A DNA stretch of 60,875 nucleotides from Shigella phage 75/02 Stx. The stretch lies in the sequence record KF766125; one strand, 5' to 3'. Positions 13,377-17,721 of this stretch are shown one piece after another. Made by a program: the position numbers and the translations under genes. Every line of letters begins with the position of its first letter. The first letter of the stretch is position 1. The notes under the pieces are model-generated. The model was not told the DNA's origin, searched no databases, and saw only the letters and a program-made list of their open reading frames with translations.

Positions 13377-14051
13377 TCATATAGAGGCTGAATCTGATCT
13401 TTTTTGTTCACGTCTGGCTGCCACCATTGCAGGCAGAGTGAAGGCGTAGACTAAAAACATTTCGGTAAAACTCAGGATCTGGCTTGCCTCAATTGGTGTG
13501 AAAACTTCATCTGTATGAACTGCTTTATTGGCATCAATTCGTACAATATGAGCCCATTCCTTCATCTGTTCAGTGATCAGCCCTTTTTTGTAAATCATCT
13601 GAATACGTTGCGACAGCGATTCTTTTCCTGCTTCATCGCCGAGCAGTTTTTTCGTGGAGATATCGAGGACTCTGCGACAAAGAATTACCACTGTGTCGTA
13701 CCGCCTCCTCTGTAAATCCTCTTTTGCCTCAACAAAAGTACGGTCTGCAACCGGGGGCGTATATTCTGGTGCGGTAATTTTTTTGACCGCAGGATAGATC
13801 TTGCGGAAACGGTACTGGCTATTTCCTGAAATCAGAATATCGAGGTCTTTTTTCTGGCTTTCCGCCATGGGGCCGTGATAGTGGTCTGATGGGATTTCAA
13901 CAATAGCAACACCTCCTCGATGACAACTTCTGCATACAAAAGCGACGTTAAAAAGAGGTGTTTTTTCAATTTGTTTTTCGGCAAATGCCTCAATAACAGC
14001 TCGCTCTTTTAAACAGTGTGGGCATGTAATGTCAAAGGAGACTAAACTCAT
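13377..14051 (-). CDS. Zn-ribbon protein with C-terminal DUF4145-like (HEPN-related) domain
   Basis: Start at ATG 14051 with GAGAGG SD; CPHC...CRSCH; C-terminal pattern LCRRVLDIS...WAHIVRIDANKAVH...FTEMFLVYAFTLP recalled as DUF4145-like. Confidence 0.7.
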   Translation of the reverse strand: MSLVSFDITCPHCLKERAVIEAFAEKQIEKTPLFNVAFVCRSCHRGGVAIVEIPSDHYHGPMAESQKKDLDILISGNSQYRFRKIYPAVKKITAPEYTPPVADRTFVEAKEDLQRRRYDTVVILCRRVLDISTKKLLGDEAGKESLSQRIQMIYKKGLITEQMKEWAHIVRIDANKAVHTDEVFTPIEASQILSFTEMFLVYAFTLPAMVAARREQKRSDSASI

Positions 14052-14295: not shown

Positions 14296-14349
14296 TTGAT
14301 ATTTCTCTGGGGTAAAGCGCCGCCAGAATGACGGCGCGGTAGTGGAGAG

Positions 14350-14658
14350 TTAAACGAAGCGGATCTGGAGTTTTTTCCCTGTAGCACGGGCGAATTTTTT
14401 CAGTGTGGCAAATGATGGGCCGCTTATACCTGATGCAAGATTGCTTTCCATTCTGGTGATCGCAGTCGCTTTTGTTCCCATACGTTCAGCAACTTCAGCC
14501 TGGGTTAAGCCTGCTTCTTTTCGTGCTGCCAGCATTTCATCAAGTAGTGCGAATTCGTCGGCGATGGCGTCGTATTCTGCTTTGAAAGCCGGATCCTCCA
14601 TCCATTTGGCTGCCATTTCGTCGTGTGTCATGGTAGGTGTAATGCGTTTACCAGTCAT
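14350..14658 (-). CDS. HigA-like HTH (XRE-family) antitoxin
   Basis: 102 aa; HTH segment GLTQAEVAERMGTKATAITRMES; overlaps the upstream toxin gene by 11 nt. Confidence 0.8.
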   Translation of the reverse strand: MTGKRITPTMTHDEMAAKWMEDPAFKAEYDAIADEFALLDEMLAARKEAGLTQAEVAERMGTKATAITRMESNLASGISGPSFATLKKFARATGKKLQIRFV

Positions 14659-14977
14659 GCTTAACCTCCTTCATTCTGGCTTCAGCTTTTTTGCGTTCGG
14701 CTGGCGGTGTTTTCTGCGTTTTCTTAATGAAACTATGCAGCATAATGATGCGTTTCCCTGTCAGAGTGCAGTAAAAAACACGTGCAATCCCATCGTTGCC
14801 TTTAATTCTGAGTTCGAAAAGCCCATCACCAAAGGCGCTGGTATGAGGTTCTCCGAGATTGCTGCCGTATACCTTCATACGTTCAATGAGATGTTTGTAT
14901 CGGACACGCATACTCAATGGAAGCTGATCGACTTCCAGCCGGACCTCTTCACTGTAGTATTCGATAGTGTAGTTCAT
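14648..14977 (-). CDS. HigB/RelE-ParE-superfamily toxin (gp49-like)
   Basis: Internal-Met start at 14977; motifs GDGLFELRI, ARVFYCT, IMLHSFIKKTQKTP typical of gp49/HigB-like toxins; toxin-first order as in higBA. Confidence 0.8.
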   Translation of the reverse strand: MNYTIEYYSEEVRLEVDQLPLSMRVRYKHLIERMKVYGSNLGEPHTSAFGDGLFELRIKGNDGIARVFYCTLTGKRIIMLHSFIKKTQKTPPAERKKAEARMKEVKHDW

Positions 14978-14988
14978 AGGTATCAACA

Positions 14989-15004
14989 TAACAAATTTGT
15001 TATA
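14989..15004. promoter_or_regulatory. Perfect 16-bp palindrome upstream of the toxin gene (candidate autoregulatory operator)
   Basis: ATAACAAATTTGTTAT, 12 nt upstream of the higB-like start. Confidence 0.45.
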
Positions 15005-15205
15005 TGTATTCAAGGACTGTACTGTGTTGACGACAACACATATCAAGCAGACAGTCATGCTGTTAGATCACGGTTTGCTTGATGGAAGGTTGACAACTCA
15101 TAAGAAATTAAATTTATTAATAAGACTCATTAAATTTTATGTTAGATTTGCAAGATGACAGGAAACAAAATATTAGGAGCAATAAAAAAAACAGGAGCAG
15201 CATTA

Positions 15206-15631
15206 ATGTTTATTATTCTGCTGATCTTTGTAAAGATAATTGCAACTGAGTTCGGTGATAATAAAATTGATGATATTTTATCAAACAAAGAAGATGCAGA
15301 TAAAATTGCCTCATACTTAAAAAATGAACTATCCAAGAAAAAATTCCCTATTAAAGTAGATGATTATACTACATGGATTGCTGCAACCGTAGAAGGAAAT
15401 ACACTTAATCATTACTATAATATTTATGGGATTAATGAAGATATGTCGCCATTTTTTGATGGTGAAGAGATTAAAAACTTAATGAGCCTAGAAATACAAA
15501 AAAAATTAAATTCTGTCGAGTGTAAAATGATGCAGGAGTATAATTATACATTCAAATATCATTATAACATAATAAACACGAAATATAATGACTTAGTTAT
15601 AATTATGACAAAGAGTAATTGTCCACAATGA
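15206..15631 (+). CDS. Hypothetical membrane-anchored protein
   Basis: AGGAG SD before ATG 15206; N-terminal hydrophobic helix MFIILLIFVKIIA; very AT-rich. Confidence 0.5.
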   Translation: MFIILLIFVKIIATEFGDNKIDDILSNKEDADKIASYLKNELSKKKFPIKVDDYTTWIAATVEGNTLNHYYNIYGINEDMSPFFDGEEIKNLMSLEIQKKLNSVECKMMQEYNYTFKYHYNIINTKYNDLVIIMTKSNCPQ

Positions 15632-15642
15632 AGGGGATGCAT

Positions 15643-16314
15643 ATGGATAACTCAAAACTGAAGAAAATGCTTATTGCATCTATTATCGGAAACATACTTT
15701 TAGTTTTTTTAAATATTCAAGTGTTCAACCAAAAACACTCCTCAAACGTCATAGACACACAAAAAAAAGAGGATAAAAGTAAGTGGACTGATATAGAAAA
15801 CATTTATCCTGTGTGTAAGGTTCACAATAATAACACATCTTATAGCGGGCAATTAAAGCCAGAATGGTACTGTTATTGGTTTAATCCAATAACATACAAA
15901 TACACATATTTAGAAAAGACTCTGATAACATCACCCAGTGATGGTGTTTTCTATTTTTCGAACGAGTATACACCAACTATTGAATTACGTCATAAAGCAA
16001 GTGACATAAGTGTTCCTGTTGATATATATGCCAAACAATTATTAGACCGACTGGAACGTGAATCAAATGCTAAAATTTTTCTACCTAAGGAGGCCAAACA
16101 GATAAAAAGTAAAAAGTTGGAAAAATGGACTTCATTTATTACAGTTATTCCCAAAGACAATTCAAAGGATATAGAGACTTTTCTTTTATCTTTCATTAAA
16201 AAGGAAGAGGTTTTATGGACGGTTTTCGTTGAATACCCAAATGATGATAAAAAGTACTGGTACATTGATGAGAAGACATTTGATCTAATAGATAAGATAA
16301 CCAGTACTTTTTGA
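15643..16314 (+). CDS. Hypothetical membrane-anchored protein
   Basis: AAGGGG SD before ATG 15643; N-terminal hydrophobic segment MLIASIIGNILLVFLNI; AT-rich. Confidence 0.5.
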   Translation: MDNSKLKKMLIASIIGNILLVFLNIQVFNQKHSSNVIDTQKKEDKSKWTDIENIYPVCKVHNNNTSYSGQLKPEWYCYWFNPITYKYTYLEKTLITSPSDGVFYFSNEYTPTIELRHKASDISVPVDIYAKQLLDRLERESNAKIFLPKEAKQIKSKKLEKWTSFITVIPKDNSKDIETFLLSFIKKEEVLWTVFVEYPNDDKKYWYIDEKTFDLIDKITSTF

Positions 16315-16333
16315 TGCGACTATCTGGCGGGGA

Positions 16334-16723
16334 TTAAATACTATATGCACCGTATTTATTATCCCCTTTTTCTGACGGGATACAGTACATAACGAACAAT
16401 ATAAAGCCACCAATATACGGGATGCACCAGATAAACAAGTACCAGGCACTTAACCCAATATCATGGAGTCTGCGGACTTTCAATGTAATGGATGGAATAA
16501 TCGTAGCTAATACGTAAACGCAAGGTATATAAAACCCATAACTAATGCCAGTATTATCTAATGTATATCCGATAAAAAAAAGAACTCCCAAGAATATTAA
16601 ATTAAACAGATAATACCACCAGAACTCTCTTCGACTGGCTCGCCCTGAATAATTGAAGTAGTTATTAAAAAGAACATCCGTATACCATGCCAAAGGGGAT
16701 TTTCTCATGCTTTTATACTCCAA
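16334..16723 (-). CDS. DUF805-family inner membrane protein
   Basis: Motifs GRASRREFWWYYLF and RRLHDIGLSAWY typical of DUF805 (YhaH-like); several TM segments. Confidence 0.7.
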   Translation of the reverse strand: MEYKSMRKSPLAWYTDVLFNNYFNYSGRASRREFWWYYLFNLIFLGVLFFIGYTLDNTGISYGFYIPCVYVLATIIPSITLKVRRLHDIGLSAWYLFIWCIPYIGGFILFVMYCIPSEKGDNKYGAYSI

Positions 16724-17052
16724 ACATTAATATTAAATTGATGATTATTAACAACTTAAAACAACGTTAATGTTTTACCTAATAGGGTGTCAACATCTAC
16801 ACAAGGAAATGTTGACACACCACACATTCTGTCGGATACTCTGCGTCAGGTGCTCAAAACACCTTAGCAAGTAGCGGTTACCGCGCCCGACAGACATGCG
16901 GTTTTTTTGTGTCCAGTCTTCTTGGTTTATGACCGGGCGTGCGGCTAATACAATACCAGCAATGGGAATATGCCCGCCGACTACTTGCGGTTTTGAGCGC
17001 CCGGTCACCCTCTCAAAAGGGGTAAATCAAAATATCAAGTAGGACACAAAGC

Positions 17053-17721
17053 ATGAAAACCATCTCCGTGGAGTCCCTCTCCATAATTTCATTTAGTAAT
17101 ATACCTGTGGTGACTACAGAGCTTCTTGCCAGCTTATATGGCACAGAACCAGATTACATCCGAAAAAATTTCAATCGGAATTCTGGACGATTTGTTATCG
17201 GTAAGCACTACTTTTTACTTGAGAATGAGGAGTTGCGCGAATTTAAGCACAGCATGTCTTTAAGACCTTCTGTGAAAATCGCCCGTAACGTTCGCTCCCT
17301 CATCCTCTGGACAGAACGCGGAGCAGCCCGTCACGCAAAAATGCTCGAAACTGATCAGGCATGGGAAGTGTTCGAAAAACTGGAAGACTGCTATTTCAGC
17401 CAGGGAAAAACAACACAAACCGAACAGCAGTCGCATATTCAGCCACAATTCACAGCCGAGGAAATCATCCTCCTTTGCTACATGCAGCTCTGGATGGAAA
17501 AAGCCCAGGGCATCAGCAAACACCTGTACCCCATTATGAAAGAGCTGAACTCCTCATACACGAACAAGCTGTATGACATTGCGTTTGAGACTATCTACAT
17601 GGTGACGAAGAACAGAGACGCGCTACTGAGGGAGGTAACACGTCTCGACATGTCAAGTTCCGTTGTCCAGAGGGCCATGCCAATGCTGAAAAGCCTGCGG
17701 GCAAGACAATTTGAATTCTGA
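17053..17721 (+). CDS. Phage antirepressor-like protein
   Basis: 222 aa; C-terminal domain shared with the Bro-N protein at 59262-59885 (AEEIILLCYMQLWMEKAQ...LKSLRARQFEF), different N-terminal domain. Confidence 0.7.
   Translation: MKTISVESLSIISFSNIPVVTTELLASLYGTEPDYIRKNFNRNSGRFVIGKHYFLLENEELREFKHSMSLRPSVKIARNVRSLILWTERGAARHAKMLETDQAWEVFEKLEDCYFSQGKTTQTEQQSHIQPQFTAEEIILLCYMQLWMEKAQGISKHLYPIMKELNSSYTNKLYDIAFETIYMVTKNRDALLREVTRLDMSSSVVQRAMPMLKSLRARQFEF

Follow-up and report, generated by a model that had tools for sequence, protein, structure and literature searches.

Phages T4 and P22 supply the classical examples of exclusion proteins that act after adsorption, at the inner membrane or in the periplasm: Imm and Sp of T4, and SieA of P22, whose gene adjoins the immI/antirepressor region. 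In phage lambda, Rex acts by abortive infection through an ion channel, and the rexA-rexB pair lies in a slot immediately downstream of cI. On the host side, Escherichia coli has the DUF805 genes yhaH and yhaI, members of the CpxR envelope-stress regulon that catalogues still class as uncharacterised. According to a 2025 J Virol paper (PMC12548472), E. coli TK001 with an in-frame deletion of yhaH resists two phages of the Stephanstirmvirinae, PhiWec188 and PhiWec190, and becomes sensitive again on complementation; DUF805 proteins of the host can thus include inner-membrane factors for infection. Here we describe an AT-rich mobile cassette of Shigella phage 75/02 Stx (sequence record KF766125; the whole 60,875-nucleotide stretch is called the window below) that encodes a phage-borne DUF805 protein together with two further predicted membrane proteins, A and B. 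The reading that we favour, at a probability of about 0.4, is that the cassette would be an inner-membrane module that protects the lysogen, by superinfection exclusion or by anti-phage defence at the level of the envelope.

Of the systems just named, YhaH and YhaI are relatives of the phage DUF805 protein, with which they share the family, the length, the three hydrophobic segments and all of the motifs at 34-35% identity. Unlike them, the phage protein is encoded by AT-rich phage DNA, did not arise as a recent copy of the host gene, and varies in its periplasm-facing segment; moreover, it is always found with a convergent A and/or B gene, whereas yhaH and yhaI have no such partner. In function, the cassette would come nearest to Imm and Sp of T4, to SieA of P22 and to the anchored Sie proteins of lactic-acid-bacteria phages, but this likeness is one of analogy: T4 pairs the polytopic membrane protein Imm with the periplasm-facing Sp, and the cassette genes also appear to encode small phage envelope proteins; sieA is near immI and the antirepressor, and the cassette is beside ant. 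No sequence relationship between the cassette and Imm, Sp or SieA is detectable, however. In five related loci (L017-L021) the cassette occupies the cI-proximal region equivalent to the lambda rexA-rexB slot, co-directional with cI and accompanied by restriction-modification (RM) or toxin-antitoxin (TA) genes, but it has no homology to rexA-rexB, and in Shigella phage POCJ13, our reference copy, it is in the nin region instead.

The exclusion genes of lactic-acid-bacteria phages (Sie2009/Ltp type) resemble A and B in that their products are N-terminally anchored with extracellular domains and in that they occupy AT-rich cargo slots of temperate phages. Lactobacillus phage LBR48 carries a DUF805 gene, gp11, between a repressor/ImmA pair and the integrase, in the slot where superinfection-exclusion genes sit in lactic-acid-bacteria phages. 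It adjoins gp12, which encodes a bitopic protein (Zn-ribbon, transmembrane (TM) segment, ectodomain), within a gp11-gp13 block; the hosts here are Gram-positive. We rejected gp12 as a homologue of A or B, as hhalign aligned the Zn-ribbon only. Bitopic proteins of the VirB8/TraE type, which have a periplasmic NTF2-like domain, are a lead only: no cassette protein matches VirB8 in Pfam, and the putative NTF2-like region, a very common fold, was modelled with a predicted local distance difference test score (pLDDT) of ~55-65.

By sequence, then, membership in a described family is established for the DUF805 protein alone. The first-pass annotation, made from the letters of this DNA, had recognised no known system here, and we found none either. 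PADLOC-DB v2.0.0 yielded 0 families for A, B or DUF805 at E <= 0.1; A and B had no match in Pfam, NCBIfam, PADLOC or the PDB, whether searched as single sequences or as family profiles, and their sole PHROGs (19308 and 21161) are tiny and of unknown function. None of the three proteins belongs, by Pfam or PHROG, to the known exclusion families (T4 Imm/Sp, P22 SieA, HK97 gp15, Cor/Llp type). We regard the cassette as a rare, conserved and previously undescribed three-gene membrane unit of a known kind, namely prophage envelope cargo, probably for exclusion; what is new are the A and B protein families, the components of the cassette and its possible mechanism.

A mobile cassette with a constant DUF805 core

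A 1.7-kb query from the locus was 100% identical to POCJ13 (NC_025434), a Shiga toxin 1 (Stx1)-converting phage of the Sepvirinae, which served as the reference copy in comparisons with other loci, numbered with the prefix L (window coordinates are those of the POCJ13 record plus 12). The cassette is in the early-right (nin) region of the phage, downstream of replication genes, a DUF977 "Ren-like" gene, a DUF4145 gene and a Gp49/HigB-like toxin with its helix-turn-helix (HTH) antitoxin, and upstream of an ORF6N/P22AR antirepressor, ninB, rusA, ninH, Q and stx1AB. Pfam matches agree with the TA module and the antirepressor that the first-pass annotation had placed to the left and right of a sharply AT-rich block. 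The block itself is confirmed: the GC content of 15059-16788 is 0.312, against a window mean of 0.491 (standard deviation 0.046 for windows of the same size), which makes it the GC minimum of the window and the sole region where windows of that size fall below 0.38. In 100-nt steps its edges are sharp: GC falls at ~15100 (0.41 to 0.23) and climbs again at ~16800 (0.25 to 0.52).

The limits first given for the block, 15142-16723, proved too narrow. We draw the cassette, three genes plus their own flanking control regions, from 15057 to ~16835 because homology breakpoints with other prophages fall there: the left one, 15057, is common to L017/L018 and L004 in BLASTN comparisons with related loci, and on the right, homology to 157 other E. 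coli Stx-type prophages starts at 16836. The low GC had also been taken as a sign of recent acquisition, which the comparisons do not support. All copies are equally AT-rich (GC 0.27-0.39), including those with synonymous sites saturated relative to POCJ13, so the low GC is an old property that the cassette has maintained and cannot date its arrival. An imperfect inverted repeat with 17-nt arms (82% complementary; 15042-15083) straddles the left breakpoint, upstream of the toxin gene, and could be a TA operator or a recombination scar.

Horizontal movement of the cassette, by contrast with its recency, is supported, in that one block with common breakpoints occupies at least three slots in E. 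coli lambdoid prophages: the nin region (POCJ13), the early-left operon near int at the wrbA/yccJ site (L006-L012 and L003), and the cI-proximal cargo region (L017-L021), where it is preceded by an Eco57I + BsuBI/PstI RM pair or by a HicAB + SocA/Panacea pair. By BLASTN, L017 and L018 share 15057-17060, L006 and L003 share 14348-16921, and L004 shares 15057-15632 and 16329-17310, with B precisely absent. The same order (minus-strand TA pair, A, B, convergent DUF805 gene) recurs in L022 and L026, from Salmonella assemblies and uncultured viral contigs, where the TA pair is RelE-HTH or VapBC and identities to POCJ13 are 30% for A, 28-30% for B and 44-48% for DUF805. Versions with A and DUF805 only (L004/L005) and with B and DUF805 only (L013-16, L027) exist, so DUF805 is the one gene common to all versions, accompanied by partners, A and B, that can be separated.

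This gene content speaks to the idea that the DUF805 protein is an abortive-infection or toxin-like effector that depolarises or permeabilises the membrane when triggered, with A and/or B as periplasmic sensors or restrainers. A small polytopic membrane protein amid TA cargo would suit such a role, convergent transcription could allow antisense control, and in lambda this cI-proximal slot is home to membrane effectors of the RexB kind. Because DUF805 occurs with A only or with B only, however, an antidote that is always required can be neither of them; the two DUF805 paralogues on host chromosomes have no antitoxin dedicated to them, and PADLOC gave no abortive-infection match. We therefore consider a toxin-like effector decidedly improbable.

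The first-pass annotation had counted a loss of intact reading frames in related prophages among the findings that would refute its proposal; the frames are intact in every one of them, including copies at 30-48% identity. The cassette is nonetheless very rare. It was found in 8 of 5,426 complete E. coli genomes, and POCJ13 was its sole carrier among 50,697 phage records; neither A nor B has relatives in 185,579 species-representative genomes (GTDB), and none of B was found in JGI metagenome contigs. This rarity, the lack of recognisable domains in A and B and a dN/dS (ratio of non-synonymous to synonymous substitution rates) of ~1 between close DUF805 alleles are what one might cite for decaying or functionless AT-rich hitch-hiker DNA, its open reading frames (ORFs) kept by chance or by linkage to the antirepressor module. 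We disfavour that explanation as highly improbable: the copies remain intact across saturated synonymous divergence with dN/dS of 0.2-0.3 at long range, length differences between B alleles keep the reading frame with no internal stops in any copy, the Cys pairs and DUF805 motifs are invariant, and the gene order is common to E. coli and other enterobacterial prophages.

The right-hand breakpoint also shows what replaces the cassette elsewhere. The antirepressor leader (16836-16921) recurs at 95-97% identity in another 157 complete E. coli genomes, among them those with Stx prophages of O157:H7 and O104:H4, which lack the cassette, match only from 16836 rightward and have a Rha-family or ORF6N gene in the slot; the slot is therefore one for variable cargo.

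The DUF805 protein is a diverged paralogue of YhaH and YhaI

The DUF805 gene (16334..16708, minus strand) encodes a protein of 124 amino acids (aa) with three hydropathy peaks, which correspond to three predicted TM segments in an N-in, C-out arrangement by the positive-inside rule. It matches the entire Pfam profile (PF05656; positions 1-111 of 111) with an E value of 1.7e-30 and 106.1 bits against a cut-off of 25.7, and its PHROG, 12855, is labelled "membrane protein". There are two candidate start codons. The first-pass annotation had the right ORF, with coordinates that extend to the TTG at 16723; we prefer ATG 16708, which has GGAG 9 nt upstream and is the RefSeq start of the identical E. 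coli gene, as the most likely start. RefSeq annotates that identical gene in E. coli chromosomes, and it is unannotated in the POCJ13 phage records (KJ603229, NC_025434), so whatever its function, the analysis reveals a gene missing from the reference annotation of this phage.

Homologues of the protein are 99%, 84%, 80% and 44-48% identical to it, and its nearest non-prophage relatives are at most 50% identical. It aligns end to end with YhaH of E. coli K-12 (34% identity, BLASTP E 3e-22) and with YhaI (35%, E 1e-24). The motifs GRAxRxE-W, RRLHD and G-x-N-x-[YF]-G are kept, and residues G22, R23, A24, R26, E28, W30, R79, R80, L81, H82, D83, G115 and G120 are invariant. These alignments identify the phage protein as a full-length, diverged paralogue of YhaH/YhaI. 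DUF805 genes are not confined to this lineage of phages: in addition to the one in LBR48, there is a DUF805 gene among the cargo of Lactococcus phage PLg-TB25, in antisense orientation. The genomic contexts of the more distant DUF805 proteins P0009 and P0010 were uninformative. Our literature search found no paper tying DUF805 to phage defence, and the papers that mention POCJ13 do not, to judge from their titles and abstracts, appear to discuss the cassette genes.

Since the family motifs are all kept, the phage protein probably retains the native DUF805 activity. That would fit a lysogenic-conversion factor that acts on envelope physiology (stress tolerance, permeability or gut colonisation) and is not directed at phages, in the way that bor and lom serve lambda lysogens; the phage would contribute one more protein of the YhaH/YhaI type, with A and B as its periplasmic helpers. 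The place of the uncharacterised yhaH and yhaI in the CpxR envelope-stress regulon is in keeping with such a factor, as is the carrier, a virulence-converting Stx phage, and conversion genes are typically AT-rich and under promoters of their own. Conversion leaves unexplained the variation on the periplasmic face of DUF805 and the split in the B ectodomain (both described below), the company of TA and RM genes, and the rarity of the cassette among E. coli genomes (8/5,426). To us it is a possible explanation, if a doubtful one.

A and B are predicted to face the periplasm

Genes A (15155..15631, 158 aa) and B (15643..16314, 223 aa) are both on the plus strand, and hydropathy gives each product one N-terminal hydrophobic segment. 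ORFs, hydropathy and Pfam thus agree with the original description of two plus-strand genes of this kind and a convergent DUF805 gene, and with the prediction that all three encode envelope proteins, whose localisation we infer from the same data. N-terminal lysines precede the hydrophobic segment in both A and B, and together with the conserved Cys pairs described below they fit an N-in, C-out topology.

For gene A, the start first given was 15206. The 17 extra residues gained from a start at 15155 (M-x-G-x-[KR]-I-L-x-x-I-K-K) are in frame and conserved in a 66% identical homologue, and a 30% identical homologue has a comparable Lys-rich N-terminus. This conserved extension makes 15155 the most likely start; the better Shine-Dalgarno sequence precedes 15206 and counts against it. 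The hydrophobic segment is followed by a predicted periplasmic domain of ~125 aa. Homologues of A are 91%, 66% and ~30% identical, with dN/dS of 0.35-0.45 among E. coli alleles and 0.21 against L022, the most distant enterobacterial copy. Of the conserved pair Cys123/Cys156, Cys123 is invariant in five prophage homologues and the C-terminal Cys is present in every full-length one. These features fit a protein that is either anchored N-in, C-out or exported by a signal peptide, with a disulfide-bonded periplasmic domain. One distant A-like protein has a lipoprotein-type signal instead.

B is a predicted bitopic inner-membrane protein (N-in, C-out), with homologues at 97%, 52-56% and 27-30% identity and dN/dS of 0.30-0.34. 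Cys58 and Cys77 are invariant in 7 of 7 sequences, in the motif C-[YF]-W-[FV]-N-P-x-T, and B, too, fits an anchored protein with a disulfide-bonded periplasmic domain.

More sensitive comparisons gave A and B no relatives of known function. The A and B family profiles found nothing among PDB sequences beyond one chance match (E 0.12). Pfam searches with all A-family members returned chance-level matches only, plus the Zn-ribbon of one distant member; a match to T4_Spackle, in one of eight members, was at chance level (E 0.037). The possibility that A and B are distant paralogues of each other was rejected (hhalign probability 3%). AlphaFold2 (AF2) models built from three-sequence alignments had pLDDT values of 47-49 and are poor enough that fold searches carry little weight; with these low-confidence models, no match was found for A, and none was found in a viral library.

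Outside the enterobacterial prophages, we rejected the idea that distant A-like proteins are paired with DUF805, as loci L031-L033 have no DUF805 neighbour, and we rejected two long A-like hits (P0118 and P0120) as HYR-repeat or compositional matches. In the metagenome contig L032, a distant A-like protein (P0121, 4001-4423; 30% identity over ~118 residues) is encoded among genes for large unknown proteins and an AHH-nuclease toxin gene, which hints that the A domain may also occur in polymorphic-toxin or immunity contexts.

Two probable convergent transcription units

The region upstream of gene A (15057..15154, plus strand) always travels with it, within the block common to L017, L018 and L004. 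It has a perfect TTGACA at 15090-15095, and although a consensus scan called no full promoter there, it may contain the promoter for gene A. B starts 11 nt past the stop codon of A, preceded by the Shine-Dalgarno sequence GAAGGGGA; because of this short gap and the strength of that site, A and B look like one operon. In every context, A and B run with the flanking early operon, and the DUF805 gene always opposes it.

The DUF805 gene has a cassette-specific control region of its own (16709..16835). Between the gene and the ant leader, an inverted repeat at 16788-16817, TGTCAACAT-N12-ATGTTGACA, contains two back-to-back TTGACA boxes, and on the plus strand there is a promoter-like site, TTGACA-17-GATACT, at 16812-16840. 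The inverted repeat could be a shared operator for divergent promoters. We rejected it as a phage operator repeated elsewhere, since it had one match in the window (0 expected). The control region is identical in POCJ13, L017, L006 and L004, and is replaced in the O104:H4 and O157 phages; the repeat is the same in every E. coli copy of the cassette, and phages without the cassette lack it.

At the convergent junction, the 3′ end of B can form a 13-bp perfect stem (AAAAAGTACTGGT / ACCAGTACTTTTT; 16249..16312, z = -1.9), a possible bidirectional terminator. In the other enterobacterial loci (Salmonella, uncultured), the two stop codons are separated by a compact GC hairpin flanked by A/T. Such hairpins are found at L022 6186-6210, L013 6402-6427, L026 4699-4727 and L004 6477-6550; they resemble bidirectional terminators, an example being AAGCCTCT-loop-AGAGGCTT with its A/T flanks, and the one in L026 folds far better than shuffled sequences (z -3.2). 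Own promoters and insulated convergent units, if that is what these elements are, would be the usual build of prophage cargo genes.

This layout bears most directly on whether the cassette instead serves the lytic cycle of the phage itself, by blocking secondary infection or re-adsorption, by timing lysis or in DNA transit. Read-through from the early operon would then express A and B, while the task of DUF805 would be to modulate the inner membrane of the infected cell. A and B are indeed co-directional with the early operon in the nin region, in the early-left operon and in the cI-proximal slot, and in most loci the cassette is immediately upstream of the antirepressor leader. The DUF805 gene, however, lies antisense to the lytic operon in every case, behind an upstream region of its own, and the terminator-like hairpins would insulate the convergent units from one another. 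Either A or B can be lost, and nearly all related Stx phages do without the cassette, with Rha or ORF6N in the slot, so it is dispensable for the lytic cycle. Overall, we find a lytic role unlikely.

Allelic variation is concentrated on the predicted periplasmic side

Between the POCJ13 and L006 types, A is 92% and DUF805 98% identical, whereas B is only 56% identical. The difference in B is uneven, with 90% identity in the membrane helix and 50% in the ectodomain (synonymous divergence, dS, ~0.9), which points to ancient ectodomain alleles swapped in by recombination. Between the POCJ13 and L017 types, the DUF805 gene has 20 non-synonymous and 3 synonymous codon differences (dN/dS 1.4); at long range its dN/dS is 0.24. 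Twelve of the 20 replacements are in residues 45-77, which are predicted to comprise the outer half of TM1, the periplasmic loop and TM2, and the cytoplasmic motifs are untouched. A replacement-rich periplasmic face together with a split B ectodomain is the pattern that would be expected of an arms race, although the numbers are small. The combinations of B and DUF805 alleles found were B1+C1, B2+C1, B2+C2 and none+C2′ (C denoting DUF805).

A possible role in superinfection exclusion

Several of these observations lead us to favour exclusion. The gene order is conserved at deep divergence, with DUF805 constant and its predicted periplasmic partners optional; the cassette always lies amid TA or RM cargo and, in one context, directly downstream of cI in the slot equivalent to that of rexAB; the phage DUF805 protein is paralogous to a host protein that some phages need; its periplasmic-face variation is replacement-rich; and DUF805 genes recur in the lysogeny modules of unrelated temperate phages. 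The superinfection-exclusion idea, already raised in the first-pass annotation, thus remains unproven but is strengthened by circumstantial support from the defence-cargo neighbourhood, the paralogy to YhaH and the variation on the periplasmic face.

If this reading is right, the DUF805 protein, with its three TM segments, would be the core, transcribed from its own promoter against the early operon. It might occupy, mimic or poison the site in the inner membrane that incoming phages exploit once they have adsorbed. A and B, co-transcribed, disulfide-bearing and facing the periplasm, would be optional accessory or specificity subunits, or else independent exclusion factors. The analysis itself shows the structure of the genes, the membrane architecture by hydropathy, DUF805 membership, the paralogy to YhaH/YhaI, mobility, a conserved gene order, purifying selection and the way in which alleles vary. 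As parts of this reading we infer expression in the lysogen, the periplasmic location of A and B, a three-protein complex and the anti-phage phenotype. A more specific version, that DUF805 mimics or poisons the YhaH/YhaI site of genome entry, with A and B conferring specificity or excluding phages in their own right, seems rather unlikely as it stands. The same holds for this version seen as a new kind of exclusion by receptor paralogy, in which the prophage's diverged copy of a host DUF805 protein that phages need for genome entry, tuned by one or two interchangeable periplasmic partners, would poison or mask the entry site; this too we can offer only as a speculative proposal with the odds against it.

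A number of points weigh against exclusion. For all three genes the case is built on sequence, and none shows a sequence relationship to known exclusion or defence proteins in Pfam, PADLOC or PHROG. The link through YhaH comes from one study of two related lytic phages, and hetero-oligomerisation of the host and phage proteins at 34% identity is only a guess. A and B share the direction of the early lytic operon everywhere and could serve the phage's own cycle, while the adjacency to TA and RM genes may reflect shared insertion hotspots. The AF2 models, at pLDDT 47-49, lend no structural support. The DUF805 dN/dS above 1 comes from 23 differing codons, and the clustering of replacements (Fisher p 0.0026) refers to a region chosen after inspection. 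Finally, the alleles of B assort independently of those of DUF805, a point against a tight interaction between ectodomain and loop.

Should the cassette exclude phages, it would add to the few defences known at the DNA-entry step a three-gene inner-membrane module, including two families outside the domain databases. It would tie phage entry, on the side of the host and of the phage alike, to the uncharacterised DUF805 family, whose E. coli members YhaH and YhaI belong to the "y-ome", and it could influence which phages, including therapeutic ones, infect Stx lysogens of Shigella and E. coli. Receptor paralogy, if true, would provide a first functional handle on the very widespread DUF805 family. 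Independently of function, the comparisons define a discrete, shuffling cargo unit with a constant core, optional partners and exact breakpoints.

Neighbouring genes and RNA elements

To the left of the cassette and outside it, the Gp49/HigB-like toxin (14648-14989, minus strand; Pfam Gp49, 3.4e-25) and the HTH antitoxin (14350-14658, minus strand; Pfam HTH_3, 3.4e-11) together form a pair, 14350-14989, that classifies as a type II TA system; the RefSeq annotation of L002 agrees. The cargo on this side swaps by locus, and may be Gp49/HigB-HTH (with or without an extra HigA), RelE-HTH, VapBC, HicAB + SocA/Panacea, or Eco57I + BsuBI/PstI; the left flank is a hotspot of cargo exchange next to which the cassette stays. 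Farther left, the DUF4145 protein (13377-14051, minus strand; Pfam 4.8e-9) has a weak PADLOC match to PD-T7-4 (E 0.0015), and its gene may be a further piece of defence-type cargo. In L003, which is a different prophage context, it again accompanies the TA pair and the cassette, at 96% identity.

To the right, the antirepressor (17053..17721, plus strand) matches Pfam ORF6N (2.3e-19) and P22_AR_C (4e-7) as well as PHROG 377, anti-repressor Ant. Its leader, also outside the cassette, contains an RNA of the sRNA-Xcc1 family (16931..17014, plus strand; Rfam RF02221, 79.6 bits against a gathering threshold of 53, E 5e-14) that lies 39 nt upstream of the start codon. Seven related loci (L003, L004, L006, L017, L018, L026 and L027) also have such an RNA ahead of an antirepressor of the ORF6N or AntA type, and two Salmonella loci have isrK and the C4 antisense RNA upstream of ant instead; the arrangement suggests immI-like RNA control of ant in Stx-type phages.

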